Made by a program: the position numbers and the translations under genes
Assembly: GCA_025336685.1 (NCBI GenBank)
Contig: GCA_025336685.1_4717.1
Reading direction: 5' to 3' (one strand)
DNA: 64,000 nucleotides
Source: Escherichia coli
GTDB lineage: Bacteria > Pseudomonadota > Gammaproteobacteria > Enterobacterales > Enterobacteriaceae
In this document: positions 14,258-54,255 of the stretch, piece by piece
How positions within the stretch are numbered: the first letter of the stretch is position 1
Layout: every line of letters starts with the position of its first letter
Notes under the pieces: model-generated
Seen by the model: the letters and a program-made list of their open reading frames with translations, nothing else
Told to the model about the DNA's origin: nothing
Database searches by the model: none

Positions 14258-15669
14258 CTTCAGTTTAATTTGGTCGAACGTATTCCAATTTCAATCCATG
14301 CCAATCACCGCCTTTACTAATAGCGGTACTTATCGTAGTCGGATGCACTTTATGTTCTTCAGCAAGGGCGAATCTATCAGGATAGACTTTATGTGTACCA
14401 TCCTCAAACACCACCTTTACTGGGAACCTTTGTAATCCACCAGTTTTTGGTCTAGGCTCTTTAGGAATATATTTACATTCGTTCACATCGCCAGGATAAT
14501 TCCTTGTCCACCATGCTTTCCAACCGTTTCTGGAAAACATCTTATCTCCATGACATAAGCTATGACTTAATGTCGCATAGCTCACTCCCACCATTGTTGC
14601 CGCCATTACGGTACTTTCCATGTGATACTTGTCTCCATCGGGCGATATTAAAACCAACCCGCCGTAAATAACATACGACTTACCGGCATCTTCGGATGTG
14701 AAACCGACAAATTCCATTCCGTGGGTAGCCGCATCGTAATATTTCATCAACGGCCATTGTCGTGTAGTACGGAACCATTTTGAAATCTGGGTGTGTGGGA
14801 TACCGTAACACTTAGCCGCATCGCGCATACTGTAATGTTCGGTTATCTCGCCAGTTCTCAAATCCTTTATCCATACTGTTTTAGCTTTCCAGTTCAAGCC
14901 CGTACGATAGGCATGGTACGTATTTTGGGATTGACTCGTCCATTCAAGATTATCCAAGCGGTTGTTATCTTTAACTCCGTCAAGATGGTTACCTACTAAC
15001 ATTGATCCCTCAGGCAGCATAGGTTTTTCACGAAAGGTGGATAAAACAACATGATGAGCTGCTATATCTCTACCTTCATGTCTGACCCTTACATATCCTA
15101 ATACGTTAGTTTTTCCTACTTCCTCTCCAGTATAGGCATCTATAATGACACCCTCCACAGAAGCGGCAAGTCCGGGATAATCTTTACAATGGTAAAATCC
15201 TGGGAATTTTGTCTCTCTAAGTTTCATCTTCTCTCCGCTATCGGCCAACAGAGAGAAAACGTTCCTCGGAGGCCGACGTTTTCAAATTAAACTACGTTAT
15301 CGACTATATCTTCATCCTCATTGCGAGGAGTCTCCCGTTTGGGTCTGTGTTTAACAGAGCCTACTCTACTCGACATCGCGTCTTTCGATAGTCTGTGAGC
15401 ACACATCTTAACGAACATTCGTGGACTCCTAAACAGGTGAACATTCTTGTTAAGATGCTTCGCTGCGGGTTATTCCCGTCCTACCTCTTTTACCATACCC
15501 AGTTCATTACGCTGGCCCTCATCTATGTCGCCACGATGAGTTGGTGTGTAGTCCGATTACAGAAACTTCCCGTCAATTAGAGAGTTTTAACTATGTTCCT
15601 GTTACCAGAAACCCGACTCCGATGATATCAATAAATCAACGTAAGTTATTGATTTAATTGAAGAAACTG
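14258..15669 (-). mobile_element. group I intron (about 1.4 kb) with HNH endonuclease ORF in its 3' part, interrupting the beta-prime-like gene
   Basis: Minus-strand core elements: P/Q-like GGACGGGAATAACCCGCAGCG (plus 15461-15482), R-like GCTCACAGACTATCG (plus 15386-15399), S-like AAGATATAGTCG (plus 15301-15312). The 5' exon ends in U, the intron ends in G, and splicing yields a perfect NADFDGD. Confidence 0.75.
14265..15248 (-). CDS. intron-encoded HNH homing endonuclease
   Basis: HNH motif HHVVLSTF...VGNHLDGVKDNNRLDNLEWTSQSQN plus helix-turn-helix-like repeats (YGIPHTQISKWF, MVGVSYATLSHSL); sits inside the intron; TTG start with an in-frame ATG 7 codons downstream. Confidence 0.85.
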   Translation of the reverse strand: MADSGEKMKLRETKFPGFYHCKDYPGLAASVEGVIIDAYTGEEVGKTNVLGYVRVRHEGRDIAAHHVVLSTFREKPMLPEGSMLVGNHLDGVKDNNRLDNLEWTSQSQNTYHAYRTGLNWKAKTVWIKDLRTGEITEHYSMRDAAKCYGIPHTQISKWFRTTRQWPLMKYYDAATHGMEFVGFTSEDAGKSYVIYGGLVLISPDGDKYHMESTVMAATMVGVSYATLSHSLCHGDKMFSRNGWKAWWTRNYPGDVNECKYIPKEPRPKTGGLQRFPVKVVFEDGTHKVYPDRFALAEEHKVHPTTISTAISKGGDWHGLKLEYVRPN

Positions 15670-16925
15670 AAGTCGGCATTGTATCCCTTAAGGATCATCA
15701 CGCTTAACCCGATGGTGTTATCCTGCGGATCGCGTTTAACCTTGGTGATTTCAAGACATTGGTTACTGCTTCGGTCAAGTGATGGGTTTCGAACAAAACC
15801 ACACACAATCCCATCGAACGGTGTATCGGCAATAAGCTCATCGTGTAGCTCGCTCATCATCGGGTGGTAATTACGGACATGTTCCGCAACGAACGCACGT
15901 GCTGCTCTTGGTGAATAACCACGATGGAATAACTTGGATTGGATGTGTTCTTTATTGGTTAATGTAAATGGCGCGTATGGGAAATGCAGATGATAATAAC
16001 GATGGTTCGCTGTTATCGAACTGATTACGGTACGCGTGGTGAATGGGTGTAATGTACCTAATATGTTTTTACGCGTGATACCTTTCTTCTTACCGATGAA
16101 CTCATCGAAAATCGCCGAGTGGTACTGCAGCAGCTTCAGTTGTACTTTCGCCATCCAGTTTTCTTTCTTTCTGGCGCTCAAAGGTGTTGTTGGGTGATAG
16201 ATACTATTCAATGTGCCGATAGCATCGATCGCACCTTCCATTTTGCTATCTGCATAACGGCCGGTCGGTGTATTTTCGATAACGAACATCATGGCCGCAG
16301 GAAAGCTGATATACTGGCTGAAGAACTTATCACGATGGATACGGATGAATTCTCGTAGCGTGTCAACTTTCTCTGTGTTCTTCGGTCCACGTAACGTAGG
16401 TCCTTTATACAAGATCTCCATGATGCGATCGAAGTTCTGTATAAAGCTATTTACGCCACGTCGTATCCCGAATACATCGAATTGCTGCTCCAGATAGTTC
16501 TTGAGTTCGATGGGTCGTTTTACATTTGGACGGTAACTGGCATCAATGAGCCACGTCATCGTTTCGAAGCTTTTGATATTCAACTCGCTTGCCAGCACGA
16601 GATGGACCAACGGGTTAATGAACGCATCGATTCCTTCAGGGACACGCGCCCAGACCGTCGAACGAATCTCCTGTTCTGCTGGGTAGGTCACAACCGTTTT
16701 ACAGTTTGGACACACCGTGCCGAGCAGCTCACCACGATTGTAAAAACCGCATCCACATTGCGGTGTGATATCCAACGTATCGCTGGAGTAAACACGGGTG
16801 ATAAAACTGTTTAATTTCTTCTTCTCTTCGACGACTTTTGTATCGTAATCGTTCAACAAAATCGGCGTAAAGGGAAGTTCTGCGAGCTGTCTATCGAAAC
16901 TCACGATATCGAGCATGATGGCCAT
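15670..16925 (-). CDS. RNA polymerase beta-prime-like subunit, exon 1 (zinc-finger N-terminus through NADF)
   Basis: CGCGFYNRGELLGTVCPNCKTVV matches the beta-prime zinc-binding motif (E. coli [23 protein letters not shown]); GKKKGITRKNILGTLHPFTTRTVIS matches [24 protein letters not shown]; the listed ORF ends ...KGYNADF followed by SFFN-stop, which is the start of the intron. Confidence 0.8.
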
Positions 16926-17017: not shown

Positions 17018-18913
17018 TTAGAACAGGTTGAATGCCCCACCCATGTTGTTACCGCCAACATTCGGACGATCGCTACGTGCATAGATGTTGCCGGAGATGT
17101 TACCCAGACCACGAGCACGTGCTGCTGTGTTACCACGAACAGCGGTACCTGCCAGATGCTGGATGTTCTCAGGACGGATGGTGAAGCCAGCTTCGGCAGC
17201 CGCTTCAATCAATGCCGCAAGCGCATTCGGTTCGAAATCGTAACGCATTGCCCAACCGGTTTGTTCCCAGCTACCAGACAGAACGCGATCGATGATTTCG
17301 TGACGAGCAACAACACGCTGAGACATCGACATATCGGTACGGTCGAAGCTGTCTTCCCAAGCTTCTACGGTATCCGGGTTAGTGATGTTCATCATGTACA
17401 GATCGTCCATATCACGAATATCGTGACGGTGGCCATCCTGGTGGTTGTAGTGACCCAGCGGGATACGGTTACCGGTAGCGTACACTAACGGCTGGCCGTA
17501 TTGATATTTCTTGCTGAAGCAACCCAGGGTGGTATCATCGAATGCACGATAGAGTGCTTTATAGCCTTCGGAGATTTCTTGAACTTTACCGTCAACGTTG
17601 CCCGTAAAGATCTTCTCAGCTGCAGGGATCATACGCAGCAACCAGCTATATTCACCTTCTTCCGGTACATCGATAGAAATCAGCAGAGACGGATACAGTA
17701 CCTGTTGCAGGAACTTGTAAATCTGCTCGTTGGTTTGAGTAGACAGATCCAGCGGTGCGGTAACTTCCGGATCCAGTACCATTGCCAGAGCACCCGGGTT
17801 ATGAGGACCGATGCCACGAGCAGCGTTGCTGATTAAAGACTGTGCCCACGCCATACCGCTGTTCAGCGTAGCGATGGTACCAATCAGACCTAACACGAAA
17901 GTGTTCGGAGTGAACGCATCCAGCTCCAGCGGGTAAGCGCTGGTCATCACGTAACGCGGCTGGTATTGTACAGTCGGCGGTACCGGATAACCGTTAACCA
18001 GAACAGGACCTTGGTTGAAGGTCGGGTTCTGCGGGCTGTAGGTCAGGTCAATGTAACCAGTGGTTGCGACCAGGCGCTGTTGACTATCGTAATCGCTCAT
18101 CGCTTGACGGATACGGTTAGAGATAGTTACAGTGATGTCAGAACGTACTGGGTTACCGACGATATCGCTGTCCTGCATACCGCTGGTGTTGTACTGAACG
18201 CTGCTGATCGGCTGATCGCTTGCCATCATGCCCAGGTTGAACTGCGGCAGGCCCAGTTTATCGCCGAGACGGATTTCGATCGCGGTTTGGATTGCGTTAT
18301 CTGCAGCAGACAACAGGGTGGTTGCCAGATGTGCAGATTCAGCGGTGATTTCATTGGTCACCACAGCCAGACCGGCGATACGAACAGTACCATTAGCCTT
18401 ACCACCAATAGCCGCATACATTGCCGCCATGACTTCGTTGATGAACGTGCCGTTCAGGTTATCAACCCAGGTACGTGGTACCAGAATGTTACCATGCGGA
18501 CCTTGTTCTTCACGACGCGGCAGCGGAGCCAAACCGGCAACCAGCGGAAGCACATAACCGAAGAAGTGGTTATGGTCACCAACTTTTGCACCGCTCATAA
18601 CAACCAGGGTCGGATACGGTACACTGTACTGGTTAGGATCGACGGTCACCATGATGAAGTCGTCTTTGAATCCTTTATCTTCCAGTTCTTTTTCCATCAG
18701 ACGGCGGAGATTCAGTACCTGCTCGGAGCCAGTATTACGGCTAATACGACGGCTCAGTGTACGGTTGATCGTACGCATCGTATGAGTTACTTTAGGCTGG
18801 CCAGCAAAATCTGCAGCGGTTTCCAGCGCCTCATCAGCACGTTGTGCGGTGCGGGTTTCAGCTGCACGAATTTCTACATTATCGTTACCGTTATTACGTA
18901 CGTCTAAGCCCAT
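17018..18913 (-). CDS. chmA: candidate phage nucleus shell protein (chimallin-like), 631 aa; alternative: major virion protein
   Basis: Size typical of chimallin; stand-alone gene bracketed by a TATATTAC promoter (73 nt upstream) and a strong hairpin; flexible N-terminal region and G/N-rich C-terminal tail ending ...GGNNMGGAFNLF; PhuZ present in the same genome. No direct sequence confirmation. Confidence 0.4.
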   Translation of the reverse strand: MGLDVRNNGNDNVEIRAAETRTAQRADEALETAADFAGQPKVTHTMRTINRTLSRRISRNTGSEQVLNLRRLMEKELEDKGFKDDFIMVTVDPNQYSVPYPTLVVMSGAKVGDHNHFFGYVLPLVAGLAPLPRREEQGPHGNILVPRTWVDNLNGTFINEVMAAMYAAIGGKANGTVRIAGLAVVTNEITAESAHLATTLLSAADNAIQTAIEIRLGDKLGLPQFNLGMMASDQPISSVQYNTSGMQDSDIVGNPVRSDITVTISNRIRQAMSDYDSQQRLVATTGYIDLTYSPQNPTFNQGPVLVNGYPVPPTVQYQPRYVMTSAYPLELDAFTPNTFVLGLIGTIATLNSGMAWAQSLISNAARGIGPHNPGALAMVLDPEVTAPLDLSTQTNEQIYKFLQQVLYPSLLISIDVPEEGEYSWLLRMIPAAEKIFTGNVDGKVQEISEGYKALYRAFDDTTLGCFSKKYQYGQPLVYATGNRIPLGHYNHQDGHRHDIRDMDDLYMMNITNPDTVEAWEDSFDRTDMSMSQRVVARHEIIDRVLSGSWEQTGWAMRYDFEPNALAALIEAAAEAGFTIRPENIQHLAGTAVRGNTAARARGLGNISGNIYARSDRPNVGGNNMGGAFNLF

Positions 18914-19167: not shown

Positions 19168-20262
19168 ATGTTTCGTGTTTTAAATAACCTCCCGCGAACA
19201 TCATCGGGTGTGCAACCCGTCCCTCAGAAAGACTATCTAATACGCGAAGTTCAAAGAAACCTACAGACAATCCAGAACCACTATCAGGGTTTTACCTTCG
19301 CGGTTCAGAGCGATCACATCCTTGCGTTGCTGCTCGCACAGCTCCCTATGAGATACGACATCTCAGTACAAACTTACTACGACATGATTCTCGATCTTAC
19401 TCCAGAATTGGGTAATCGTGTTAAGTTGACAACATCAAGATACGCGGGTAAGTTATTCGACGGAGCCTTCTATCCGGGATTGCATGAAGCTATTATCGCA
19501 ACCGGTGAAAGTCGTCTTATTTCACGTGACGTTCTTGACAACTGGCGTAATTGGTCACCAGTTAGAATCGTGACGCACCCATACGCAAATCTTCGTTACA
19601 TTCCTCTTCACCAAAAGCAGGTTGAGGAAGGACGGGGGTTTGCGGTCATTATGGTTGATGTACCTTTATTAGCGCTACAGTATCGAATGTGGTCTTTGGT
19701 CATGGGGCATAACGTCGATGGTAAATGGGTGGTTAAAGAACCGGTTACAAGCTTCCTTGCGAGTTTTCCGTTGGTTAACGCATTATACTCACACAACGAT
19801 GTTGTCGTACGCAACCGCTGTTTGTGGGTATCTCCGGCTAAGAATCCACTCAAATCACCAATTTACGTTAACGACCTTGATAACGTATTCGACCAAGTCG
19901 CTCTGTCCGTACAGCATCATTTATTACGAAGAAGACGAAGCTACACCGACATGCTTAAACAGATACCGAGTTTATACGGGGATCAGTACCAAGCAACCCG
20001 AATGGGCTACACCGTTGATCTTCGACAAACCCGATGGGCAAGGGATCTGGGTTGTCTGTCATTATGGCAGCAACTCGTCACGTTGCAAAACGTATCTGAA
20101 AGCGTCGGATTTAGCAGTCAAATCGATAACGACCTGTACCGTGCTGCCGACCGGAGTCTAAAAGAAGGTAACTGGGAATCCTCTCCGTTACCTGGCGATT
20201 TAAGACGTGAAGTTATTGCACAGGTTGCCGACCTCTTAAAAATTCTTCCTGCTGGTGCATAA
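19168..20262 (+). CDS. hypothetical protein (364 aa)
   Basis: Plus-strand ORF convergent with the 20329-22482 gene; no motif recognised. Confidence 0.5.
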   Translation: MFRVLNNLPRTSSGVQPVPQKDYLIREVQRNLQTIQNHYQGFTFAVQSDHILALLLAQLPMRYDISVQTYYDMILDLTPELGNRVKLTTSRYAGKLFDGAFYPGLHEAIIATGESRLISRDVLDNWRNWSPVRIVTHPYANLRYIPLHQKQVEEGRGFAVIMVDVPLLALQYRMWSLVMGHNVDGKWVVKEPVTSFLASFPLVNALYSHNDVVVRNRCLWVSPAKNPLKSPIYVNDLDNVFDQVALSVQHHLLRRRRSYTDMLKQIPSLYGDQYQATRMGYTVDLRQTRWARDLGCLSLWQQLVTLQNVSESVGFSSQIDNDLYRAADRSLKEGNWESSPLPGDLRREVIAQVADLLKILPAGA

Positions 20263-20313: not shown

Positions 20314-20328
20314 GGGTGGTGGGTTATG

Positions 20329-22482
20329 TTATTCTGCGGTTTCTTGCTTCGGTAAATAACTTGCTGCGATGTCTTGGGCCAACAATGTATTGTTTTTATT
20401 CGAGATGAAAATACCGTAACTTTCCATTAACGCATAATACGAACGAACGAGCGTAGAGATCAGTCGACGAATATCCATACCTTGAATAAAGATATCAGGA
20501 AGCCCGGAGGCTTCGATCACCGGTAATGGTATCGTTAAGTTGCTTATCGTTTTCTTATCGTTACGTACAATCCAATCACGGAAACGTTGTTGTAACCCTT
20601 TATCCTCCCATGAATCAATCCAATCATTAAGAAGCGTTTTGTTCTTCGTCGCCAGCGGTACACGAACCCCAACATAAGGCGGTTCAGAGCAATGGCCGTA
20701 CGATTGAGCAAACACCTCTTCCCACATATCGTAAGACTGTTTCGTTACTGCAACATGTGGTTTCACTTTAACACGTGTTAAGAAATCGGGGTCACCTCGT
20801 TTCATTGACTCAACGATTTCGTTTTCTAACGAGATGATATCATCAAGAACCAATCGAATACTGATCTTCTCGTTACGTAACAGCTTATCCATGATACCAC
20901 ACATCATCCGCTCAACACGTTGGACGATCATCTTCGGCGCTGATGCGTCGCGCATAACAGGGCCTTTCAATTCCAGCTTCGGTGGATTGATAGGAACCCC
21001 TTCACGCATGGTCATGTATCCGTAATAGTTTTTACCCATCGAGGTTAACGACAGGATTAAGAACATATATTCGTTCTTCATCTCCATTACGTACATATGC
21101 TCTTTCGCTACACCGATATTACCAGAACACATCGCCATCAGATGAACCGTAATCTGCGTAACCAGATAGATAAGCGTGTTTGCTAAGCGCGTCGAAATTG
21201 GATTGATCTCCATATTTCCAAATCGCCACTGAACCCACTCCTGGCAGGTAAACACCGTCGAGTCGGTATCAGACAACACACCCACTTCACGGATTGCCGA
21301 CGGAAAAGCATAAACGCCTGCCGGTTGGTTCTCGGTACGCCATAACGCCTTAATTAAATCAGCGTAGCTTTGGATGCGTTGCAGCATTAATTTTGTCGTT
21401 GCTGCAGTAAGACGATAACCGAGTTCATTTCCTTTTTCTAGCGCTACGTAAATCGCTTCCCCGTTCAAGAACTCCGTGCATTGTGCTGTAATCCAAGCTA
21501 CCGTGTTGTTATCCATGGAAGCAATAATGGCTTTAGCCTCTTCCATCGTTTCAACAGGTTCGGATGCCAGTTCACATAACGAGTCAAGAAAATCTCGAAC
21601 AAATTCAGGATTAAGCTCACGTAACGAGTACAGGTTATTGCTGTACATGTAGCAGGCACGTTCCAACGGCGTTAAACCGGTAATTAGCTCCCGGATGGTC
21701 AGCTCTTTCTCTGGGTCGAAAGTATACCGATGTAAGCATTTCGATACGTTAGCCCAAACCTCTTCCGGCGTAGGGTAATGCAGTTTGTATTTTACCATTA
21801 CCTGCTCAATGGCTTTACGATCGCTGTTACGGACAATACTCACGATGTTTTCAATTGCGATATCACAATCGTAATAATGGAAATTACCCGCAAGGAAGCG
21901 TTCGTTGTTCGCATTGGCTGAACCTGAAGCACAGCGACATGTTGTCGTTAGACTCGGATGCGCGATCGGATTGTAAAATGGGTTAAACTTGGACGCTTGG
22001 GTTCCTGACAAGCTGTTGTTATCTAACTTGGTGTTGGTTTGTCGTTTATCGTGTAACTCAGCTTCGTCTTTACGTCCGTGAGCTTGCGCTATCGACATTT
22101 GTTTCTTCTGTTTCTTACGCAACTTACCGTTTTCAACCGCAAAGTCGCTTAGCACACTGGAACGTGTTTCACGTGGATAACAGTTAGCCCATACCGGCGT
22201 GATAATTAAATTATTTTCTTTAATATCGTTGAAGTATTGGCTGAACTTGATGACTTCTTTTTCTCGGTTTCCTTCAGTACGCTGTGTTAGTACAAGGCAG
22301 TCGGGATCAACCATCCCGTATTTTCCACCAGGACTAACCGTATCAAGAACAAACTGCAACGCTTCCTGCTGAGAAATCCCACGCATGCGCATTAAGAACA
22401 GGGTATAATCCTGTACCGCTTCTTTGGTCATATCCAACGTACGGCCATATCCGTTTTCATCGTAAAAGAACGGATTTTCCAT
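20329..22482 (-). CDS. hypothetical protein (717 aa); weak polymerase-like motifs
   Basis: Long ORF containing GVLSDTDS and YDMWEEVFAQSYG, which loosely resemble nucleotidyltransferase / RNAP beta region I motifs; not sufficient for assignment. Confidence 0.5.
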   Translation of the reverse strand: MENPFFYDENGYGRTLDMTKEAVQDYTLFLMRMRGISQQEALQFVLDTVSPGGKYGMVDPDCLVLTQRTEGNREKEVIKFSQYFNDIKENNLIITPVWANCYPRETRSSVLSDFAVENGKLRKKQKKQMSIAQAHGRKDEAELHDKRQTNTKLDNNSLSGTQASKFNPFYNPIAHPSLTTTCRCASGSANANNERFLAGNFHYYDCDIAIENIVSIVRNSDRKAIEQVMVKYKLHYPTPEEVWANVSKCLHRYTFDPEKELTIRELITGLTPLERACYMYSNNLYSLRELNPEFVRDFLDSLCELASEPVETMEEAKAIIASMDNNTVAWITAQCTEFLNGEAIYVALEKGNELGYRLTAATTKLMLQRIQSYADLIKALWRTENQPAGVYAFPSAIREVGVLSDTDSTVFTCQEWVQWRFGNMEINPISTRLANTLIYLVTQITVHLMAMCSGNIGVAKEHMYVMEMKNEYMFLILSLTSMGKNYYGYMTMREGVPINPPKLELKGPVMRDASAPKMIVQRVERMMCGIMDKLLRNEKISIRLVLDDIISLENEIVESMKRGDPDFLTRVKVKPHVAVTKQSYDMWEEVFAQSYGHCSEPPYVGVRVPLATKNKTLLNDWIDSWEDKGLQQRFRDWIVRNDKKTISNLTIPLPVIEASGLPDIFIQGMDIRRLISTLVRSYYALMESYGIFISNKNNTLLAQDIAASYLPKQETAE

Positions 22483-22557
22483 AAATCCTCCAAAAGTTAT
22501 TTAGTCTGTCTACATCATCTCGTATATCTGTTAAAAAAGAAGGACGGCATAAAAAGA

Positions 22558-22583
22558 ACCGATCCAGCCGAAGCCAGATCGGT
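22558..22583 (-). terminator. hairpin ACCGATC-N12-GATCGGT followed on the minus strand by a T-tract
   Basis: Minus strand reads ACCGATCTGGCTTCGGCTGGATCGGTTCTTTTTATG, a rho-independent-terminator-like structure in the 300-bp intergenic region. Confidence 0.4.
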
Positions 22584-22638
22584 TTAAAGGATAATAACTG
22601 ACTGAAAGATATCGATGATGTTCGTGAAACAAGATCTT

Positions 22639-22780: not shown

Positions 22781-23194
22781 TTACTGATTAATCAAGTCGT
22801 TAGCAACAATCTTGGTGTAACCCGCCTGATTAAGAATTTGATTAATTTTTGTCATGTCGGTCGCATCCTCGATAACGATGCTAGGTTTATAGATCAGCGT
22901 CTTGGTAACGACGATCGTGCTCTCCTTAATCCAAGGAATCCCTAAAATCACATACTCACCATCAGCTGTGATGACCTCGACGTAATTGTACTTCGTCGGA
23001 TCGTTCGGTACACTCGACGGGAGCCGGGAATAAATCTGTTGGTGAATGGCGTCCACATCGCGGCCGTTACGTACGGCGGTACGATAATTGTACACCGCGC
23101 TAATTTCTACTCCGTTGAAGTTAACCCCAAGTTCTGGGGCGTACACATCAAAACTCACAACAGAGCCAATCTTTTCTAAATCAGAAGCTGGCAT
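22781..23194 (-). CDS. hypothetical protein (137 aa)
   Basis: ORF; no motif recognised. Confidence 0.45.
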   Translation of the reverse strand: MPASDLEKIGSVVSFDVYAPELGVNFNGVEISAVYNYRTAVRNGRDVDAIHQQIYSRLPSSVPNDPTKYNYVEVITADGEYVILGIPWIKESTIVVTKTLIYKPSIVIEDATDMTKINQILNQAGYTKIVANDLINQ

Positions 23195-26826: not shown

Positions 26827-27660
26827 TTAAAACAAACGACGTCGCTTCTGAATCAGGCTGCTTTCAGGTACAAAACCGTCACAGCTGTAAATAGCGTTAA
26901 CACCCATGACTTTAGTCGCGTCTTTCGGATAAAGCGTACAGAAAGCAATAGGACTATCGTTCTCTTTCGTCCAATCGTATCCCACGAACGTATTCAGTTC
27001 GGTGATCGTTGGTTCCAAACCGGTAACACGTGGATGGTTTAAGAAGTTTTCCAGGTCGGCGCTGTCAAGACGACGGTTCTCACCAGAAAACAGAACACAA
27101 AGCTGGCTAATAACAACCTGCACGTCCAGGTTGACATCCTGCTCCGATTTCCCATTTTCGCCATTCATGTGATAGCTAACAATCACCGGACGTTTCAATC
27201 CTTCTGCAGCTGCCATCAGTCCTTTAAAGGTACGATCGGCGTTGATCGTTTGACGCTCATCATCGAACGAGGCAACGATGCAACACACCACACGTTCACC
27301 GCGTTCCAGCAGGTTAGCAACCAACGCAGGACCTGCAACAGAACCTGAACCACCGCTCAGACTAAAGACCACGATATTAAATTTACCAGGCGTATGCTTA
27401 TTGAGAATGCCTGGGATTTGTGAACAGATCAGTTCAGCGTTCTCATCACGCTTCTTACCAGAACCGTCTAACTCACGACCCGCCGCATCTTTAAAGATGT
27501 AGATATGATCGTCGTCCAGTGCGCTATCGCGTAGGTTAGCCCGGCTGGTATCAACATACGTCATGCTGTGTAATCCTTTCGCGACTTCGCCTTCAAACGC
27601 TGAGCCGATTTCGCCACCACAACCACCAACAGCCCAAATATGTACTTGGTTCTCTTGCAT
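26827..27660 (-). CDS. phuZ: PhuZ-like phage tubulin/FtsZ-family GTPase
   Basis: N-terminal glycine loop IWAVGGCGGEIG and tubulin signature FSLSGGSGSVAGPALV (cf. PhuZ SLGGGSGSV / tubulin GGGTGSG); size and spacing fit the tubulin fold. Confidence 0.8.
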   Translation of the reverse strand: MQENQVHIWAVGGCGGEIGSAFEGEVAKGLHSMTYVDTSRANLRDSALDDDHIYIFKDAAGRELDGSGKKRDENAELICSQIPGILNKHTPGKFNIVVFSLSGGSGSVAGPALVANLLERGERVVCCIVASFDDERQTINADRTFKGLMAAAEGLKRPVIVSYHMNGENGKSEQDVNLDVQVVISQLCVLFSGENRRLDSADLENFLNHPRVTGLEPTITELNTFVGYDWTKENDSPIAFCTLYPKDATKVMGVNAIYSCDGFVPESSLIQKRRRLF

Positions 27661-35331: not shown

Positions 35332-37584
35332 TTAACGGGGAGTCTGCGGACTACTCTTAGAAACCTCCGGTCGGTATTGGCCCATCGTCATCCACGCGTT
35401 ACGAGAAATATTCCGTTCGTTCGAAGAGCGACTTATTTGACGATACGTATTCGCTCGTTCCTCCCTTGCTTTCGTAATCATCGCGTCGATAGAGACAGAC
35501 GCTGAATCCTCCCCGCGTATTTTTCCTTTATAGGTAAGAAGCTCCGCCTCCAACCGATCCAAGATAAGGCCATTGGTTTCGGTCTTAAGCAGCTCATAGA
35601 TTTCAGCAACGCGTTGACGTAGCTTCGCCTGCTGTTGGTTAAGATAAGCTTCATACGGATCTATTTCACCCGTCACAGATGCCGGTAAACGACTCATGAC
35701 TTTAAGCGGATCGATACCGTAATGAATCTGTTTCTTAGCACGCTTGATGAACCACATCGCTAACATCCATGCGAACGTCATGTCATCGTGCATTCCATCC
35801 TGGTGGTCGACACGCCCATCTTTGATAACCAATCCGAGAATCTCGGAACACAGCATCTTATCGCGTAACTGCCCGCGGGTTTCTACGATACCTTCCATCA
35901 AGATGTCGGAGTACAACTCCATGCGTTTGCGTGCATCCGTCGTGAAGCCCAAGTGTCGTTTACGCTGAGCGTACCAACTTTCATCACGCATGCTCAACGG
36001 CAGTTTCAGGTCTTCGAACATTGCTGGATTATCAGCATGTCTGTCCACAATCGTGTTGTATACACGTTTGAATACGTCGATGCCTGCTTGCCGCAAGAAC
36101 TCTTCAATTGCGTCTAACAACATGATTGCACTGCTCTTACGTTCGGGAATCAACGTAACGTTCTTATAGCGCATCATGAAGTTGGCCATCCAACGAGCAA
36201 AAGAAAGCAGACTCAGTTTATTAAAACGTCCTGTCGCAACAACTTCTGCTGTTTCCACATCCACCATCACCAAACCGATCGCGTCACGACCTATCGCGTC
36301 ACTGGTATCTAAACCAGCAACCACCTTGTTGTTCTGCATGTATGTCTCGATTTGACCTCGAGGTATATACCAGTTAATGCAGTAGCCTTCAGGTGAGATC
36401 TCGATATGGTCGATTTCACGTTGTCCTGCCATGATCATCTCAACCATCTCAGCGGTTAACGGGCTTTCTGCTGAACCGTTGGTCCAAATGTTCATGTAGT
36501 CACGGTCTTTCTGAAGCTTATCACCTTCCGTTTCGTTCATGGTTTTTGCTAACCATTCGTCACTGAATCCTAATTGAGCATGGTTCCATTGTGCCCCGAT
36601 CCTGACGGTCGCCTTGCTAAGTTCACACGGTACGTTGTTCAATACCGTCTGATGCAGATGCTTTTCGTTACGGCAGTCAAAGAAACTTTCAGAAAACGGT
36701 GCGGAACGCATGAAAACTTCATAAGCCCATTTACCCTCGCGTTTATCCAATTCACCTGCTGTTGTCGTATAGATGATACTTGTCAGGTCGCCGTTGCTTA
36801 ATGCTTCATCGCGTGCTGCACCCATCGCACCGATACCGGCAGGGACAATGATTTCGATGTATTTCGTAAACGCGGTTTCGTCGCTATGGAATATCGGGGT
36901 TGTTAGACCACGACCGATGTTTGTTGCTTGTTTCTTATCCGAACGTGGAATCTTTACCGATAACTTGTTCTTGAAACGTGTGTAGGTTACGTTCTCTTTG
37001 TTCGATGAATCACGGCTATCCAGCGTCCAGAGATACGCAGGCAGTAGATCACGTATACTACGCACGTCTTCTACTGTTTTCGTACGGGCATCACCGTCTT
37101 TTGTTAACTGAATAACCTCGGTGTTTCGACTACGAACATAGGTTAGATAGCAGAACAATCCTAACATGGTCATGGATTTACCCGTCTGACGTATCTGTAT
37201 CTGATACCAGTTCGTTCGGGTAAATATCCCCCAAAGCATCGGAATGTTACCGCGGTTAGCACGGAACGAGATCTTGTTATCACCCGCCTTAGCCGGAACC
37301 CGCATCACTTCACGGAAGAAGTACCATGGGTTAAGGTAACACTCCGCACTGATCATCTGAATCTGTTCTGACGTCAAATTCGGTGCGTGGGGATCAACAC
37401 CGATTAATCTTGGGTTTAATAGCGCCATGAAAAACGCAGAGTTTCGGACACCGAATTCACGACGATACAAGATCGCTAAATCACGCCAACTTGTGTTTGT
37501 TGTTTCCCAGTGTGGAACAGCTTGAGGAAAATAATCCCAATCTTCCTCAAACAAGATGATTTTCTTCGGATCGACAATCGACAT
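35332..37584 (-). CDS. terL: terminase large subunit (ATPase plus nuclease)
   Basis: Walker A-like QIRQTGKSMTM; C-terminal RNaseH-like nuclease motifs VVAGLDTSDAIGRD...GLVMVD and HQDGMHDDMTFAWMLA; size 750 aa. Confidence 0.8.
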   Translation of the reverse strand: MSIVDPKKIILFEEDWDYFPQAVPHWETTNTSWRDLAILYRREFGVRNSAFFMALLNPRLIGVDPHAPNLTSEQIQMISAECYLNPWYFFREVMRVPAKAGDNKISFRANRGNIPMLWGIFTRTNWYQIQIRQTGKSMTMLGLFCYLTYVRSRNTEVIQLTKDGDARTKTVEDVRSIRDLLPAYLWTLDSRDSSNKENVTYTRFKNKLSVKIPRSDKKQATNIGRGLTTPIFHSDETAFTKYIEIIVPAGIGAMGAARDEALSNGDLTSIIYTTTAGELDKREGKWAYEVFMRSAPFSESFFDCRNEKHLHQTVLNNVPCELSKATVRIGAQWNHAQLGFSDEWLAKTMNETEGDKLQKDRDYMNIWTNGSAESPLTAEMVEMIMAGQREIDHIEISPEGYCINWYIPRGQIETYMQNNKVVAGLDTSDAIGRDAIGLVMVDVETAEVVATGRFNKLSLLSFARWMANFMMRYKNVTLIPERKSSAIMLLDAIEEFLRQAGIDVFKRVYNTIVDRHADNPAMFEDLKLPLSMRDESWYAQRKRHLGFTTDARKRMELYSDILMEGIVETRGQLRDKMLCSEILGLVIKDGRVDHQDGMHDDMTFAWMLAMWFIKRAKKQIHYGIDPLKVMSRLPASVTGEIDPYEAYLNQQQAKLRQRVAEIYELLKTETNGLILDRLEAELLTYKGKIRGEDSASVSIDAMITKAREERANTYRQISRSSNERNISRNAWMTMGQYRPEVSKSSPQTPR

Positions 37585-43036: not shown

Positions 43037-45109
43037 ATGAGGCTTAAGAATAGCACGCCTCGCGCGATTTTTACGGGCTTTAAAGAGGGTCTTACCACGG
43101 ATCCGGTTACAGCCCCAGAGATCACGCCCATTCACCTCCCGTATGTATTCATTCAGGGTGGTCGTGGTAAAGAGGACACCTTGCTGTTAACAGGGGACGC
43201 CCTGTCTACAGTTTACGGTGAAGATATGCTGAACTACCGTAGTAAGTACGCTTCTCCAGCAACACTGATTGCTCGCCAAGCTGCTTCTACGGGTAGCGCG
43301 ATCTTCACAAAACGTTTGGTTGCGCCGGATGCAACGGCAGCACGCCTCCGTATCGGTGTTGAAGTGGTCGCCGATAAACTGGTCGTTTACCAGCGTAATG
43401 CTGACGGGTCTTTCAAAAAGGACACCGCCGGTAACAAAATCCCCGACGGCGATAAAACCGTTGATGGGTTGAAACTGCGTTGGGTTGTTAACCACGACAA
43501 AGATGCTGAAACGCCGAATGTTTTCGGTAAAGATGAAGTGGTTATCGGCCAACTGACGGCAACTGACGGTACCCAGAGTAACTACTATCCTATTCTGGAT
43601 GGGTTAGTAAGCTGGCGTGGTGCTGACGGGGATAACATCGGCGTGCGTTTGGAAGCACCGACCGCGCTGAGCAGTAACCCTACCCGTACCGATATTATCG
43701 AACGCATCGGTGCTTTCCTGTACCGCATCCAGTTCGTGGAACGCAAGTCTTCACGTACTGCGCCGACAGTCATTCGTACAATCAGCGGTATGGAACAAGA
43801 AACCTTCGCACTGCAGGAAGGTGTTATCCAACCTGATGATGAAACCGATCTGTCCTTCGGTAAAGTGGTCGTTGACGCCTACGAGTATAATGAGACGGGT
43901 AACACCCCGATCTTTGCTCCGATGGATCAGATGCATCTTTATCAGAAGAACATCGACGAAATCGTCAAGAAGCTGTACGAATCTGAAAGCAAAGCTAACA
44001 ACGATCTGTTAACCGACGTCGAATTCGTCGAAGGCCAGATGAACATCTTCACTGGTGTTGATTACAACGGTATTCCGTATCAAACCATCGAAGTTCTCGA
44101 TGCGGATCAGGGCGGCGCTATCTTCGATGGTACCAGCACCTTCTACGCAATCGATGGTAGTGATGGCGACGTAAGCTGGGATACCTTCGATGCGTTAGCG
44201 AAGCAGCAGTTCGAATCGTTCGGCAACATGGGTGAAGACCTGGAAGACATGGCTTTCTATCCGTTCTCTATTGTGTACGACATTGGTTACAAAGTCGACA
44301 CGAAGAAAGCGATGGCGAATGTCTTGTCTCTGCGTCCTGACGTCATGATCATTGCATCAACCCACACCTGGAAGGGCGTGGAGCTGAACGTCGACGAAGA
44401 AAGCTCCATGGGTGCAATGCTGCGTAACTACTACCGTCTGCATCCAGAAAGCGTGCTTTACAATACCCCAGCCTGTCGTGCTGCTGTGTTCATGCAATAT
44501 GGCGAAAGCATCGAAGCGCCAAGCCTGGGTAAAGTTCCGCTAACGCTGGAAGTTGCTAATAAACTTGCAACGTACATGGGTGCTTCAGATGGTGTTATCC
44601 GCGGTACCCGCATCGATAACAACCCTGGTAACGTTGTCACAACGATGCGTAAAATCAACAAGACGTATCGTAACGCAACGGTCCGCGATCGTGATTGGGA
44701 AAACGGCTTGAACTATGTTCAGACCTACAACCGTAATTCCAACTTCTTCCCGGCTTGGGGCACGATCTACAATAACGACCGTTCGGTATGGCGTTCGTTG
44801 ATCAACGTGATCATCGGCTGCGATCTGACCCGTGTGTGTTATCGTCTCTGGGCAGAAACCACCGGTACTACAGGAATGGATGAAGCGCTGTTCCTGAAGC
44901 TGATGGGTGAACGCTTCCTGGAATACACCACGGGTCGTTACAACGATCACGTGACCGTTAAAGGACGTTTCTACCTGGATAAAGAAGACGGTTACAACGG
45001 CTTCAGCTATCACGGCGATATTAGCCTTATCGGCGATCCGGGTATGACCGTGGGTACGTTTACCATCACCGGGCTGCGTCGTAACACCGAAGCAGCAGAA
45101 GCGGCGTAA
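43037..45109 (+). CDS. putative tail sheath protein
   Basis: 690-aa ORF with strong RBS (AAGGAGAG), followed 15 nt later by a roughly 300-aa ORF and then a strong terminator, which is the typical sheath-tube arrangement. Size matches myovirus sheath proteins. No motif-level confirmation. Confidence 0.5.
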   Translation: MRLKNSTPRAIFTGFKEGLTTDPVTAPEITPIHLPYVFIQGGRGKEDTLLLTGDALSTVYGEDMLNYRSKYASPATLIARQAASTGSAIFTKRLVAPDATAARLRIGVEVVADKLVVYQRNADGSFKKDTAGNKIPDGDKTVDGLKLRWVVNHDKDAETPNVFGKDEVVIGQLTATDGTQSNYYPILDGLVSWRGADGDNIGVRLEAPTALSSNPTRTDIIERIGAFLYRIQFVERKSSRTAPTVIRTISGMEQETFALQEGVIQPDDETDLSFGKVVVDAYEYNETGNTPIFAPMDQMHLYQKNIDEIVKKLYESESKANNDLLTDVEFVEGQMNIFTGVDYNGIPYQTIEVLDADQGGAIFDGTSTFYAIDGSDGDVSWDTFDALAKQQFESFGNMGEDLEDMAFYPFSIVYDIGYKVDTKKAMANVLSLRPDVMIIASTHTWKGVELNVDEESSMGAMLRNYYRLHPESVLYNTPACRAAVFMQYGESIEAPSLGKVPLTLEVANKLATYMGASDGVIRGTRIDNNPGNVVTTMRKINKTYRNATVRDRDWENGLNYVQTYNRNSNFFPAWGTIYNNDRSVWRSLINVIIGCDLTRVCYRLWAETTGTTGMDEALFLKLMGERFLEYTTGRYNDHVTVKGRFYLDKEDGYNGFSYHGDISLIGDPGMTVGTFTITGLRRNTEAAEAA

Positions 45110-48841: not shown

Positions 48842-49651
48842 TTACCACTGATTAAAGCTGCCCGCTTTAACGATGTCACAACGCAGATGGTTACATAACT
48901 GATCCAGGAAGACAACCGGACTGTCACCGGACAACATGGCCAGTGCGTGCTGACCGCCAGAACGAACAACCAGATCATCAACCATTGGCGCAGTAATCGG
49001 GAGATCGTACGCGTCCATGATTGCTTTGGCTTCCTGTTCTACGTCTTTCTGAAACCCTTCCATCGTCGGAGAGTCATATTTGGTTGCAAACTCGATCCCA
49101 GGCAAGTTAACGTAATCGTAAGTCATCACGCGGGTCATAACGCGACGGCGCTCACGTTGCCAGATCTGAGGATCGGTTAACGCACGAACCGAAAAACACA
49201 CGTTCACCAGAGGCGTTTCAAAATCCTTACGTAACGCATCACCGTACGGACCACAAGGAATAACGTCCCCCATCACCATCACGACAGGACGACCACGACG
49301 ATCGCGTCCTGCTTCTTCCAACCAAATCTTAGAAAAGCAATGACTCACTTTGGTTTCTTCGATTCGTAACGCTCGCTGTAAAAAGCTGGTGGCATCCTGA
49401 CCGATCTCTGGTTTAGGGTGACCGTATTCACCTTTCAGCGAACGATTGCGTGCGTTTGTTTGCAGTAAGCTGTTTTCCAGGAACAACGGTTTCGAACGCT
49501 CAAGTTCGTAATATTCTTCGGTATTGTTAAAACAGTTAAACCCACCGATAACACAGGTGTAGGCACCGTCAGCGTTAGGACGGATAATACCTTTTTTATT
49601 CACACCGAGATAACTGGTGCAAACAAGATTACTAATTGGTGGTTGCATCAT
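48842..49651 (-). CDS. hypothetical protein (269 aa)
   Basis: ORF. Confidence 0.5.
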   Translation of the reverse strand: MMQPPISNLVCTSYLGVNKKGIIRPNADGAYTCVIGGFNCFNNTEEYYELERSKPLFLENSLLQTNARNRSLKGEYGHPKPEIGQDATSFLQRALRIEETKVSHCFSKIWLEEAGRDRRGRPVVMVMGDVIPCGPYGDALRKDFETPLVNVCFSVRALTDPQIWQRERRRVMTRVMTYDYVNLPGIEFATKYDSPTMEGFQKDVEQEAKAIMDAYDLPITAPMVDDLVVRSGGQHALAMLSGDSPVVFLDQLCNHLRCDIVKAGSFNQW

Positions 49652-53031: not shown

Positions 53032-54255
53032 TTATTTAGCGTCGTTAAAGTAAATATCAACAGCTCGTTCCGTTGCGTAGAGGAGACCAAGATTCACAGT
53101 CCCAACCACTTCCGGTGAACCGATGATACGGTTAGCGATACTGGTGCCACTGAAGATAGCATCAAGGGTGTGCCCGTCTTCGGTTTTGTTCACACCATGA
53201 CCCACGGAAGAGACAACGGATTTCGCTTGTGCTGCGAAGGTACCCTTATCACCCATCCCCGCACCAAGGTCGTAACGCATGAAAATACGGATGGCGATCT
53301 GGTTCTCGCCTAACGGATTACCGTCTATTCTCACGTTACTGTTGTTGATACGCCCCGTCGTTGCTTCATTGAGTTTCAGTTCCTTGACGCGTTTAGCTCG
53401 CGCTTTATCTGCGTCACCGACGAGCGCCGCCATGGTTTCACTCATATCCTCAATCTGAGCGCGGTACAGCACATCGATCTGTACAACTTCACCATGAACG
53501 TCAGCACGTGGGTTATACTGACTCATACGACGTAATGCTTCAACGGCTTCCTGACTCTCATCACTCAGATCAGTTGCGATCGGTTCTTCCAGTGTTGCAA
53601 GAATAGTTCGAGGTTCAACATGATCGCCGATTTTTACGAGACCACGAATGTTGAGATGGGCGTCAACAATGAGCGTGCGGCTCTTAATCGATGGTGTTAC
53701 GAGACGATCGGCAAGATTGTCGAAGATATACGAACTGTCCTCGTGAGTCTCTGGAATATCCAGAATACCGACAAGAGACAGAACACCTGCGCGCCAAACA
53801 ACCTGACCTGGGTTCCACCAGTCGCGTTTAAAATAAAGACGATGGAAAACTACCACATCTTGATCCTTAACGCGATCCCCAACTTTATAATCGGTAATGA
53901 GGTCATGCGGATAATACTTACCTGGTCCTTTCCCGATTATCGTACCGAGTTGGAAAACCTCTTCTCCTAACTCTGGATCATCGTATTGTATCGTAAGCGC
54001 AGTTTTGGTGACCTTCTTCACAACACCATCGCCTTGGGCGGCAGCTGCGAAGAGTTTACCAACGCGATGCGCGATAACGGTCTCGCCACCAGTACGCCAT
54101 GGTTGTACATCGTAACCTTCAGCAGCAATCATGCGGTTGTGTTGGATGCCTATAAATACGAGACGCTTTGGCGGAATCCAGCAAAATACATTTACTGTGC
54201 GTCCGGATTGTTCAGATAAGGTCGTTAATCTTATCCCGGAGGCGATGATAGGCAC
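53032..54255 (-). CDS. RNA polymerase beta-like subunit, middle segment (probable 3' exon)
   Basis: [23 protein letters not shown] resembles beta [40 protein letters not shown]...[13 protein letters not shown] resembles GDKMAGRHGNKGVIS...GVPSRMNIGQILE. The listed start is GTG, and the frame stays open a few codons upstream, consistent with an exon. Confidence 0.6.
   Translation of the reverse strand: [407 protein letters not shown]

Follow-up and report, generated by a model that had tools for sequence, protein, structure and literature searches.

Split family B DNA polymerases of phages

In phages RB69 and T4, the DNA polymerase gp43 consists of one chain of some 900 aa, whose N-terminal domain, exonuclease and motif A are located on a separate protein, DNAP-N, in the chimalliviruses. 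The other chain, DNAP-C, belongs to the Pfam family PF20286, "Divergent Family B DNA polymerase", and the palm insertion of this family was described by Iyer et al. (2021). In Thomas (2016/2017), gp18 and gp44 of phage SPN3US are termed a 'split subunit DNA polymerase', and the citing literature credits Cornelissen (2012) with the same term for phage OBP.

Two preprints of October 2026, both unreviewed, deal with the phiKZ and Goslar enzymes. The gp82 and gp50 proteins of phiKZ, whose complex has been solved by cryoEM at 2.14 A (PDB 9N52), form a stable 1:1 heterodimer of DNAP-N and DNAP-C that extends primers in vitro, with D562 of DNAP-N and D426 in motif C of DNAP-C as the catalytic residues (PMC13648687). 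The phiKZ palm insertion consists of DNAP-N 589-638, DNAP-C 1-98 and DNAP-C 221-419 (Basu et al., PMC13648687). In Pseudomonas phages, a 'little finger' insertion has been reported, which sits in DNAP-N, not in DNAP-C (2026 preprint). The gp068 and gp244 proteins of Goslar have been co-purified, and their primer extension is stimulated by Rhc, a protein with an RNase H and a clamp-like domain (PMC13648698). In both the phiKZ and Goslar orthologs, the thumb of DNAP-C binds duplex DNA and the clamp domain of Rhc (PMC13648687, PMC13648698). These ortholog preprints are the source for the heterodimer, its activity, its binding of Rhc and the architecture of the insertion domain.

A two-chain family B polymerase is also found in some T4-like phages such as Acinetobacter phage Apostate, in which the gene of a mobile HNH endonuclease lies at the break between gp43A and gp43B. 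However, the Apostate proteins are adjacent parts of a canonical gp43 without the palm insertion and do not belong to PF20286. Judging from the size of gp43B (390 aa), the Apostate break probably lies downstream of the chimallivirus one, which corresponds to RB69 residues of about 433-437. The Apostate split is an independent and recent event, in contrast to the ancient, family-wide split of PF20286.

Here, an ORF in a 64,000-nt stretch of DNA (the window) is compared with these systems. With a probability of about 95%, it encodes DNAP-C, a subunit of the two-chain replicative family B polymerase of nucleus-forming jumbo phages (Chimalliviridae), in this case a Goslar-like coliphage. The enzyme is already known: it is covered by Pfam PF20286 and by Iyer et al. 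(2021), by the work on SPN3US and OBP and by the two 2026 preprints. What is established here concerns its family, motif conservation, fold and orthology to Goslar gp244 and phiKZ gp050, and the absence of motif A from DNAP-C together with its presence in the partner family.

The gene and its Goslar counterpart

The earlier note had described a 717-aa protein, and the gene is real: it is present in the ORF list, starts with ATG, is preceded by a ribosome-binding site (Table 1) and is under purifying selection. The window stems from a phage closely related to Escherichia phage Goslar, whose copy, also of 717 aa, is 95.9% identical to the window gene at the nucleotide and 99.2% at the amino acid level. 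The 89 nucleotide differences produce six amino acid changes (S50R, K378M, L380F, I429V, Q521K and S599Q, from the window to Goslar), none of which falls within the catalytic motifs, and 81 of the 87 differing codons (93%) are synonymous. The small share of nucleotide differences that change the protein indicates that DNAP-C is under purifying selection. The window contributes just a second Goslar-type DNAP-C allele, of which the substitution pattern confirms that this selection is strong. Goslar also shares the neighbors of the gene, with the SH3-fold protein gene SH3DP upstream and a convergent 364-aa ORF, followed by chimallin and the nvRNAP beta-prime gene. The RefSeq product of the Goslar ortholog (HOV27_gp244, YP_009820875.1) is 'DNA polymerase'. 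Its GenBank record (Goslar_00191, QBO63983.1) still reads 'hypothetical protein'.

Table 1 Features of the DNAP-C locus in the window (amino acid numbers refer to DNAP-C)
Feature	Residues (aa)	Window coordinates	Strand	Basis
DNAP-C gene (717 aa + stop; C-terminal subunit of split family B polymerase)		20329..22482	-	ORF list, PF20286, PHROG 2927
Ribosome-binding site GGAGG, 5 nt 5' of the DNAP-C ATG		22488..22492	-	upstream ...TTTTGGAGGATTT-ATG read directly
Palm insertion, first segment (two helices and a beta hairpin)	1-89	22216..22482	-	AF2; phiKZ boundaries
Palm hairpin (SPxxxxY), fingers helices and return to palm (LTxxCR helix)	90-197	21892..22215	-	hhalign
LRKKQKK with R122 and K126 (fingers)	121-127	22102..22122	-	aligns to RB69 'RKEHK'
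KLDNNSLSG, motif B (KxxxNSxYG, Y replaced by S)	152-160	22003..22029	-	RB69 alignment
Palm insertion, second, all-helical segment between fingers/palm helix and motif C	198-400	21283..21891	-	AF2
GVLSDTDS, motif C (YGDTDS-type)	401-408	21259..21282	-	conservation, hhalign, AF2
GKNYYG, KxY motif	483-488	21019..21036	-	equivalent to RB69 K705-K-R-Y708
Thumb domain	about 510-717	20332..20955	-	hhalign to RB69 615-902
YDMWEEVFAQSYG, conserved thumb motif	584-596	20695..20733	-	conservation; thumb placement by hhalign, low local confidence
Terminator-like hairpin and T-run between SH3DP and polymerase genes		22557..22584	-	12-bp stem, 6 GC pairs
SH3-fold protein gene (137 aa; PF20287 SH3DP), upstream of DNAP-C		22781..23194	-	PF20287, E 1.3e-36

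Family and fold

The protein matches PF20286 over its full length (residues 9-705 on positions 3-704 of the 705-position profile) with 678.2 bits, the gathering cut-off being 25.7 (E 1.7e-203), and PHROG 2927, 'DNA polymerase', with an E-value of 2.5e-205. Its homologs are found in 306 phage records, nearly all of them from phiKZ-like jumbo phages, and PF20286 is present in all 116 database homologs. DNAP-C is 32% identical to phiKZ gp050, the DNAP-C of the gp082/gp050/gp155 polymerase, over the full length (E 3e-137; 731 aa in phiKZ against 717 aa here), with the same motifs. It is 30% identical to SPN3US gp18, a member of the same family with the same split, in this case with gp44.

A profile search of PDB sequences returns solely family B polymerases (RB69, T4, poxvirus and Pol delta, zeta and alpha). 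A profile is needed for such a search, since phmmer with the single DNAP-C sequence gives no match at E<=10 in a PDB sequence set without 9N52. When aligned by hhalign with seven T4-type gp43 proteins, residues 399-717 pair with RB69 615-902 (probability 84%, E 8e-6). The full-length alignment is limited to this C-terminal block because an insertion of about 200 aa disrupts collinearity. The N-terminal 215 aa by themselves pair at about residues 78-198 with RB69 residues of about 437-603 (probability 94%).

The AF2 model of DNAP-C (pLDDT 91.9, pTM 0.88) has a palm-fingers-thumb fold, and Foldseek finds this fold to resemble that of solved family B polymerases, with RB69/T4 gp43 and the ASFV polymerase as the top PDB matches (probability about 1). 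The best 46 PDB matches are all RB69/T4 gp43, with probabilities of 0.63-1.00 (0.95-1.00 for the top 38), E-values of 6e-4 to 1e-2 and global TM scores of 0.18-0.27. The TM scores to RB69 are low because the N-terminal and exonuclease domains are missing from DNAP-C, which in addition contains an insertion of about 290 aa. In BFVD, the structural matches are DNA polymerases encoded by phages, giant viruses, poxviruses and herpesviruses, among them the AR9 DNA polymerase with TM scores of 0.70-0.77.

The remote homology search and structure prediction that had been proposed for this ORF thus lead to a family B polymerase and to no unrelated fold. The poor fit to family B that the earlier note had reported does not hold, in view of the PF20286 match, the gp43 profile alignments and the RB69/T4 gp43 structural matches. 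A second reading, as a subunit of the multisubunit RNA polymerases (RNAPs) of the phage, either RNAP-associated as the earlier note had suggested or beta-like, could draw on the RNAP genes of the same block, such as 15654..16925, the Goslar ortholog of which carries a beta-prime/beta annotation, and on YDMWEEVFAQSYG, which loosely looks like the beta motif GEMEVWALEAYG. However, no RNAP family is matched in Pfam (E<=1) or PHROGs (E<=0.01), BLASTP against the RNAP ORFs of the window (15654-16925, 53032-54255, 55771-58980 and 58984-60672) gives a best E-value of 0.59, and the PDB profile and Foldseek matches are all DNA polymerases. Because YDMWEEVFAQSYG lies in the region aligned with the RB69 thumb and has no RNAP matches, its likeness to the beta subunit is coincidental. 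A role as an RNAP subunit is effectively refuted already; DNAP-C is a genuine polymerase, already described and unrelated to RNA polymerase, and what had been flagged as possibly polymerase-like is the catalytic C-terminal subunit of the known chimallivirus replicative polymerase.

Fingers, motif C and thumb

Fingers, motifs B and C, KKRY and thumb follow one another in DNAP-C in the same order as in RB69/T4 gp43, which leads the structural matches in the PDB. Conservation was assessed in a set of 92 homologs with 24-64% identity to DNAP-C. The region from the palm hairpin to the LTxxCR helix matches the fingers of RB69, poxvirus and Pol delta/zeta polymerases in the profile search of PDB sequences, and AF2 places fingers helices at residues 110-134 and 138-161. 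R122 and K126, the counterparts of RB69 R482 and K486, are invariant (92/92) and presumably bind the triphosphate as these RB69 residues do. Motif B is aligned by hhalign with K560, N564 and G568 of RB69, K152 and N156 being the equivalents of K560 and N564; K152, N156 and G160 are found in every homolog, S159 in 90 and S157 in 86. DNAP-C therefore has both the motif B and the finger R/K residues of a family B polymerase. Its fingers are much shorter than those of RB69: K126 and K152 are separated by 26 aa, the equivalent K486 and K560 by 74 aa.

The motif GVLSDTDS, which the earlier note had likened to the acidic catalytic motif of nucleotidyltransferases, is motif C of family B. D405, T406, D407 and S408 are each present in 92/92 homologs and S404 in 90/92, and hhalign pairs the motif with 'YGDTDS' of RB69, in which D621 and D623 correspond to D405 and D407. 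In the AF2 model, motif C is located at a beta-hairpin (strands 401-404 and 409-411), which carries the two aspartates as in other family B polymerases. In the pairwise alignment with phiKZ gp050, D426 aligns to D407, and D407 is accordingly predicted from sequence to be the counterpart of the catalytic aspartate (phiKZ D426, RB69 D623).

The KxY motif lies C-terminal of motif C, as KKRY does in family B polymerases. K484 and Y486, which correspond to K705 and Y708 of RB69, are invariant, and position 485 is histidine in 87 of the 92 homologs; the profile string 'aKHYya' is aligned with 'KKRYAL' (705-710) of RB69. By its RB69 counterpart, we take K484/Y486 to contact the primer terminus. In the thumb, YDMWEEVFAQSYG is conserved at W587 (90/92), F591 (83/92), Y595 (87/92) and G596 (91/92). 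The presence of this motif and of GVLSDTDS was thus correctly noticed, and both are conserved far beyond chance expectation.

Palm insertion and absence of motif A

The odd motif order and spacing that the earlier note had pointed out are real: the chain has no motif A, and motifs B and C are about 245 aa apart, compared with about 60 aa in RB69 gp43. This layout is unusual because the enzyme is split into two polypeptides and carries a large palm insertion, which amounts to about 290 aa more than in gp43. The phiKZ segments DNAP-C 1-98 and 221-419 map to residues of about 1-89 and 198-400 here, and the boundary of the first segment was carried over from phiKZ DNAP-C 1-98 through the pairwise alignment. 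Residues 1-89 are without a counterpart in RB69 gp43, and the hhalign alignment with gp43 is confident only from about residues 78-90 onward. AF2 predicts helices at 18-34, 38-49 and 80-90 and strands at 61-66 and 74-79 in this part, which probably interdigitates with the C-terminal tail of DNAP-N. The second segment contains 13 AF2 helices (from 206-219 to 374-380), with pLDDT mostly >90.

No acidic residue upstream of E194 is conserved among the 92 homologs, and motif A is absent from the DNAP-C chain. Position 25 is D in 38 homologs and Q in 36, position 59 is D in 57 and N in 15, and position 72 is D in 54 and N in 32; this is more variation at D25, D59 and position 72 than a metal ligand would allow. 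'QDYTLFL' (residues 24-30), which hhalign of the N-terminal 215 aa tentatively paired with motif A 'FDLTSLYPS', was rejected: the local confidence is near zero, D25 is found in only 38/92 homologs, AF2 predicts a helix at this place and not an Asp-terminated strand, and the partner carries the true motif A. E194, D283, E471 and E494 were considered as substitutes for the motif A aspartate and became superfluous once the motif A of the partner was found. The 3'-5' exonuclease (Exo I-III) is likewise absent from DNAP-C, in which gp43 homology begins at about RB69 residue 437.

The lack of motif A within the chain and the nearly 300 aa of non-polymerase insertion could suggest a catalytically dead, polymerase-like scaffold that plays a structural part in the phage nucleus. 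However, in motifs B and C, the fingers and KxY, the residues for catalysis and substrate binding are invariant among homologs down to 24% identity, 93% of the codon differences from Goslar are synonymous, and primer extension in vitro has been reported for the ortholog complexes of Goslar and phiKZ (PMC13648698, PMC13648687). A dead scaffold is therefore extremely improbable. Template-directed DNA synthesis, as reported for the Goslar and phiKZ ortholog pairs, would by analogy be the activity of the DNAP-C pair considered here.

Motif A on the partner chain

The DNAP-N family, represented by SPN3US gp44 and 54 homologs, aligns to RB69 18-432 with a probability of 99.2% (E 1.5e-19). D152/E154 of Exo I and Y395/D399 of Exo III are invariant in this family, and N262/D266 of Exo II are nearly so. 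Motif A (VADxDxxxAYP) is aligned with that of RB69, with D506, D508, Y513 and P514 invariant; SPN3US gp44 itself carries Exo I-III and the motif A 'DADLTQAYPS'. The collinearity of DNAP-N with RB69 thus extends to residue 432, and DNAP-C resumes at about residue 437. Motif A (DxxSLYPS) is not found in the same polypeptide as motifs B and C but is supplied in trans; it belongs to the holoenzyme and not to DNAP-C alone, and this defines the split chimallivirus subfamily.

One possible reading of Iyer et al. (2021) is that DNAP-C is a self-sufficient polymerase without an exonuclease, assisted in trans by a separate exonuclease. In favor of this reading, motifs B, C and KxY all lie within the DNAP-C chain. 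However, none of the acidic residues among the 92 homologs is conserved in a way that could serve motif A, whereas motif A is invariant on a partner that is collinear with RB69 to residue 432. Furthermore, the phiKZ proteins form a 1:1 heterodimer, and D562A in DNAP-N, introduced on top of an exonuclease mutant, abolishes primer extension (PMC13648687). A self-sufficient DNAP-C is thus very unlikely. Joining of the two halves by a split intein was also rejected: the N-terminal 60 aa of DNAP-C are predicted to be helical and not an all-beta HINT fold, and the phiKZ halves are a non-covalent, interdigitated heterodimer (PMC13648687). No intein blocks are seen on reading the DNAP-C sequence, and only F5 and Y12 are near-invariant in its N-terminal 60 aa. 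No evidence contradicting the split-polymerase explanation was found.

DNAP-N was not found in the window by tblastn with SPN3US gp44. In Goslar, its gene (gp068) is located at 79.7-83.2 kb, about 93 kb from the DNAP-C gene, and its exon 2, which follows an HNH gene and a group I intron, encodes 'LDISSSYPN'. The spliced Goslar reading frame is made up of 79690-81186 and 82949-83203 of NC_048170.1. Because of this intron, the Goslar partner gene is misannotated as truncated. Goslar Rhc (HOV27_gp190) is encoded at 233.1-234.6 kb, past the end of the window; a 507-aa ORF at 51174..52697, considered as an Rhc candidate within the window, is without an RNase H domain. Given the 96% identity to Goslar in this region, the phage of the window would probably carry the same DNAP-N and Rhc partners.

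In the proposed mechanism, DNAP-C would provide the fingers (R122, K126 and K152/N156 of motif B), the motif C hairpin D405-T-D407, KxY, the thumb and most of the palm, and motif A and the proofreading exonuclease would come from DNAP-N. The catalytic centre would be a composite of the motif A aspartate of DNAP-N, the second D of 'VADLD', and D407 of DNAP-C. DNAP-C residues of about 1-90 and 198-400 would build, together with the C-terminal tail of DNAP-N, the helical palm insertion that holds the two chains together. Binding of Rhc to the DNAP-C thumb would shift the enzyme from exonuclease action toward primer extension; Rhc is the processivity partner of the chimallivirus enzyme, whereas gp43 uses a gp45-type ring clamp. 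The biology of note lies in an active site that spans two chains, in their connection by a unique palm insertion, and in the replacement of a ring clamp by an RNase H-clamp protein.

The SH3DP neighbor and the intergenic hairpin

A gene of the SH3DP family lies directly upstream of phiKZ gp050 (as PHIKZ049) and of the SPN3US polymerase gene, and in three distant metagenomic loci it is 0-2 genes away from DNAP-C. It adjoins DNAP-C or lies within two genes of it in 7/7 loci, down to 25% DNAP-C identity. The linkage between SH3DP and the polymerase was noted by Iyer et al. (2021), who raised a subunit role as a possibility. By text search, SH3 is mentioned in neither of the 2026 preprints on the reconstituted enzyme (PMC13648687, PMC13648698). 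We tentatively suggest, as a rather doubtful proposal, that SH3DP is an uncharacterised fourth component or a regulator of the split polymerase. It may be a chaperone that assists DNAP-C in assembly or import, or an ssDNA- or primer-binding accessory protein. The replisome in which such an accessory protein would be placed has no identified primase.

A pattern scan for terminator-like hairpins returned three sites, compared with 2.4 expected, and on its own is weak support for a terminator between the SH3DP and polymerase genes. The Goslar annotation places a terminator between the corresponding SH3DP and DNAP-C genes.

DNAP-C is the C-terminal subunit of a split family B DNA polymerase

DNAP-C, the 717-residue protein that the earlier note regarded as possibly polymerase-like or RNA polymerase (RNAP)-associated, is encoded by an ORF with a GGAGG ribosome-binding site 5 nt 5' of its ATG. 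The ORF lies where that note had placed it, and its two motifs are GVLSDTDS (residues 401–408) and YDMWEEVFAQSYG (residues 584–596). Of 116 homologs gathered from databases, 92 with 24–64% identity to the query were aligned. D405, T406, D407 and S408 never vary, S404 is kept in 90 of the 92, and W587, F591, Y595 and G596 of YDMWEEVFAQSYG are retained in 83–91. Both motifs are hence real, selected features.

DNAP-C matches Pfam PF20286 (Divergent Family B DNA polymerase) from end to end (678 bits, E 1.7e-203) and PHROG 2927 (DNA polymerase) with E 2.5e-205. A tblastn search finds one homolog per phage in about 300 phiKZ-like jumbo phages, many labelled DNA polymerase, and RefSeq gives the same label to the ortholog of Escherichia phage Goslar (HOV27_gp244, YP_009820875.1). 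Every PDB sequence that the family profile finds is a family B polymerase (RB69, T4, poxvirus, Pol delta, zeta and alpha). An AlphaFold2 model built from the 92-sequence alignment is confident (pLDDT 91.9, pTM 0.88), and its best Foldseek matches in the PDB are all RB69/T4 gp43, the canonical single-chain enzyme, followed by the ASFV polymerase. The probability is about 1 with global TM-scores of 0.18–0.27, which are expected to be low because DNAP-C lacks two domains and carries an extra one. In BFVD, the model superimposes on two unnamed viral proteins (TM 0.92–0.93) and on the Bacillus phage AR9 DNA polymerase (TM 0.70–0.77). Thus, the reading as a polymerase with a catalytic acidic motif stands, and the doubt over family B does not.

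The suggested link to RNAP fails as well. Neither Pfam nor PHROGs reports an RNAP family for DNAP-C, the best BLASTP E against the RNAP subunits that the phage encodes in the window is 0.59, and YDMWEEVFAQSYG falls in the region aligned with the polymerase thumb.

Motif map against gp43

Profile–profile comparison with seven aligned gp43 proteins of the canonical T4 type yields two blocks. The first pairs residues ~78–198 with RB69 ~437–603 and takes in the SPNGMMY hairpin, the RKEHK finger residues, motif B and the ITxxGQ helix; the second pairs residues 399–717 with RB69 615–902 and takes in motif C, KKRY and the thumb. The equivalent residues (RB69 in parentheses) are R122/K126 (R482/K486) in the fingers, K152/N156/G160 (K560/N564/G568) in motif B, D405/D407 (D621/D623) in motif C and K484/Y486 (K705/Y708) in KxY, all invariant in the family. 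Between the blocks, residues ~198 to ~400 form 13 helices in the AlphaFold2 model with no gp43 counterpart; this is the "long multi-helical insert" of Iyer et al. 2021. The odd motif order that had been noticed is grounded in fact: E194 is not preceded by any conserved acidic residue in the 92 homologs, and motifs B and C are ~245 residues apart, compared with ~60 in RB69 gp43. A weak hhalign suggestion of residues 24–30 as motif A was rejected, as Asp occurs there in only 38 of 92 homologs and the segment is predicted to be helical.

The partner chain

Motif A resides in a partner chain, DNAP-N. SPN3US is annotated with a second DNA polymerase CDS, gp44 (594 aa), which has exonuclease motifs Exo I (VYDVETNE), Exo II (WNHQFDISRM) and Exo III (YAVYNMMDN) and, near its C-terminus, DADLTQAYPSATNMMNQSRETT, matching an RB69 segment. 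D152, E154, Y395, D399, D506, D508, Y513 and P514 are invariant among 55 homologs, and the family aligns with RB69 residues 18–432 (probability 99.2%, E 1.5e-19). The complementary coverage of RB69 by the two families indicates a gp43-like enzyme divided at about RB69 433–437, just after motif A. Judging from these alignments, each chain must contribute to the catalytic centre.

DNAP-N was not found in the window. In Goslar it is Goslar_00068, ~93 kb from the DNAP-C gene, and a NUMOD1/HNH gene together with a group I intron (44.7 bits, E 1.3e-9) breaks its frame at motif A. The unannotated exon 2 opens with (L)DISSSYPNG and encodes LDISSSYPNGQ..., and the GenBank CDS is therefore truncated. 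Rani et al. (PMC13648698) reached the same conclusion on the interrupted gene, and their spliced gp068 sequence, which contains RLFVADLDISSSYPNG, is identical to that inferred here. Acinetobacter phage Apostate (NC_049491 40420-46608) likewise has a split gp43 of the canonical T4 type, with "gp43B split DNA polymerase" (390 aa) adjoining a MobE HNH endonuclease gene; there, a family B polymerase was divided independently of the chimallivirus split and more recently.

Structure and biochemistry of the orthologs

Earlier literature had already recognised the division into two chains, and two October 2026 preprints settle the mechanism for the orthologs. The 2.14 Å cryoEM structure of phiKZ gp82 (DNAP-N) and gp50 (DNAP-C) by Basu et al. 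(PMC13648687) is an interdigitated, RB69 polymerase-like 1:1 heterodimer with catalytic aspartates D562 (motif A, DNAP-N) and D426 (motif C, DNAP-C) and with both polymerase and exonuclease activities. Its palm insertion domain comprises DNAP-N 589–638 and DNAP-C 1–98 and 221–419. Pairwise alignment with phiKZ gp050 (32% identity, E 3e-137) places D426 at D407 and the insertion segments at residues ~1–89 and ~198–400 of DNAP-C, in agreement with the independently set boundaries. A third protein, Rhc, consists of an RNase H and a clamp-like domain and contacts the thumb and the emerging duplex (PMC13648687). The co-purified complex of Goslar DNAP-C (gp244, YP_009820875.1) and DNAP-N is mainly exonucleolytic alone and shows robust primer extension after addition of Rhc (gp190) (PMC13648698). 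The Goslar Rhc gene lies at 233.1–234.6 kb, outside the window, and a search of the window's candidate 507-aa ORF detected no RNase H domain. DNAP-C is thus already known, down to ortholog cryoEM structures and activity assays, and nothing about it is novel.

Goslar gene numbers differ between MK327938.1 and NC_048170.1, the polymerase subunit being Goslar_00191 in GenBank and HOV27_gp244 in RefSeq. The 2026 Goslar preprint mixes GenBank numbers (gp068, gp189-type) with RefSeq ones (gp244, gp190). Goslar_00190, the 364-aa ORF beside the polymerase, may be misread as Rhc; the Rhc gene is HOV27_gp190, located at 233 kb.

Gene neighbourhood

Window 17000-25000 shares 95.9% DNA identity with Goslar, and a DNA search of the phage collection gave no other match. 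The DNAP-C proteins are 99.2% identical, and 81 of the 87 differing codons are synonymous, a pattern typical of a functional gene. The surrounding genes (SH3DP, a 364-aa ORF, chimallin and an nvRNAP beta-prime piece) are the conserved chimallivirus block, whose order is repeated in SPN3US and a distant metagenomic contig. The 364-aa ORF, without a Pfam match, lies between the polymerase gene, with which it converges, and the chimallin gene; its counterpart has the same position and orientation in Goslar, SPN3US and one distant metagenomic contig. Chimallin is one of several chimallivirus hallmark genes in the window, along with a PhuZ-like tubulin, whose Goslar ortholog RefSeq names "tubulin PhuZ", the terminase large subunit, the tail sheath and an S80 prohead protease. 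A 313-aa TTG-start ORF (17966..18907, +) lies wholly on the opposite strand of the chimallin gene; it shows no sign of coding and is most likely a shadow ORF.

The SH3-fold gene SH3DP accompanies DNAP-C in all seven loci inspected: three distant metagenomic contigs as well as the window, Goslar, phiKZ and SPN3US. SH3 is not mentioned in either reconstitution preprint (PMC13648687, PMC13648698), as judged from a search of their text, and this gene is the only loose end found for DNAP-C.

Features of the window and of the Goslar DNAP-N locus
Feature	Coordinates	Strand	Remarks
HNH endonuclease ORF	14265..15248	-	PF13392
Group I intron	15281-15660	-	Rfam RF00028, 50.3 bits, E 8.9e-10
nvRNAP beta-prime piece	15654..16925	-	
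Chimallin	17018..18913	-	PF25677; PHROG "nuclear shell protein"
364-aa ORF	19168..20262	+	PHROG 3938, function unknown, E 1.1e-53
DNAP-C	20329..22482	-	ATG start, 717 aa
SH3DP	22781..23194	-	PF20287; 137 aa; upstream of DNAP-C
PhuZ-like tubulin	26827..27660	-	PF00091, 30.7 bits, below cut-off 33
Terminase large subunit	35332..37584	-	chimallivirus hallmark
Tail sheath	43037..45109	+	chimallivirus hallmark
S80 prohead protease	48842..49651	-	chimallivirus hallmark
RNAP beta-like piece	53032..54255	-	407 aa
Group I intron within insertion	54267-54709	-	49.4 bits, just under gathering score 50; E 5e-11
HNH endonuclease ORF within insertion	54484..55695	-	
RNAP beta-like piece	55771..58980	-	1069 aa
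Goslar DNAP-N locus pieces	MK327938 77223-83632, local 2468-3967, 4036-5247, 5183-5701, ~5724-5950		

Introns and homing endonucleases in RNAP genes

The nvRNAP beta-prime ORF is directly followed by a group I intron and then by an HNH endonuclease ORF, and Goslar is annotated with the same layout (Intron_gpI and a NUMOD1/HNH gene). In Goslar, one 1448-aa ORF (HOV27_gp207) makes up the RNAP beta-like gene (PHROG 3148), which in the window is split by an insertion of ~1.6 kb that Goslar does not have. This is an intron/homing-endonuclease presence–absence difference between two 95%-identical phages.
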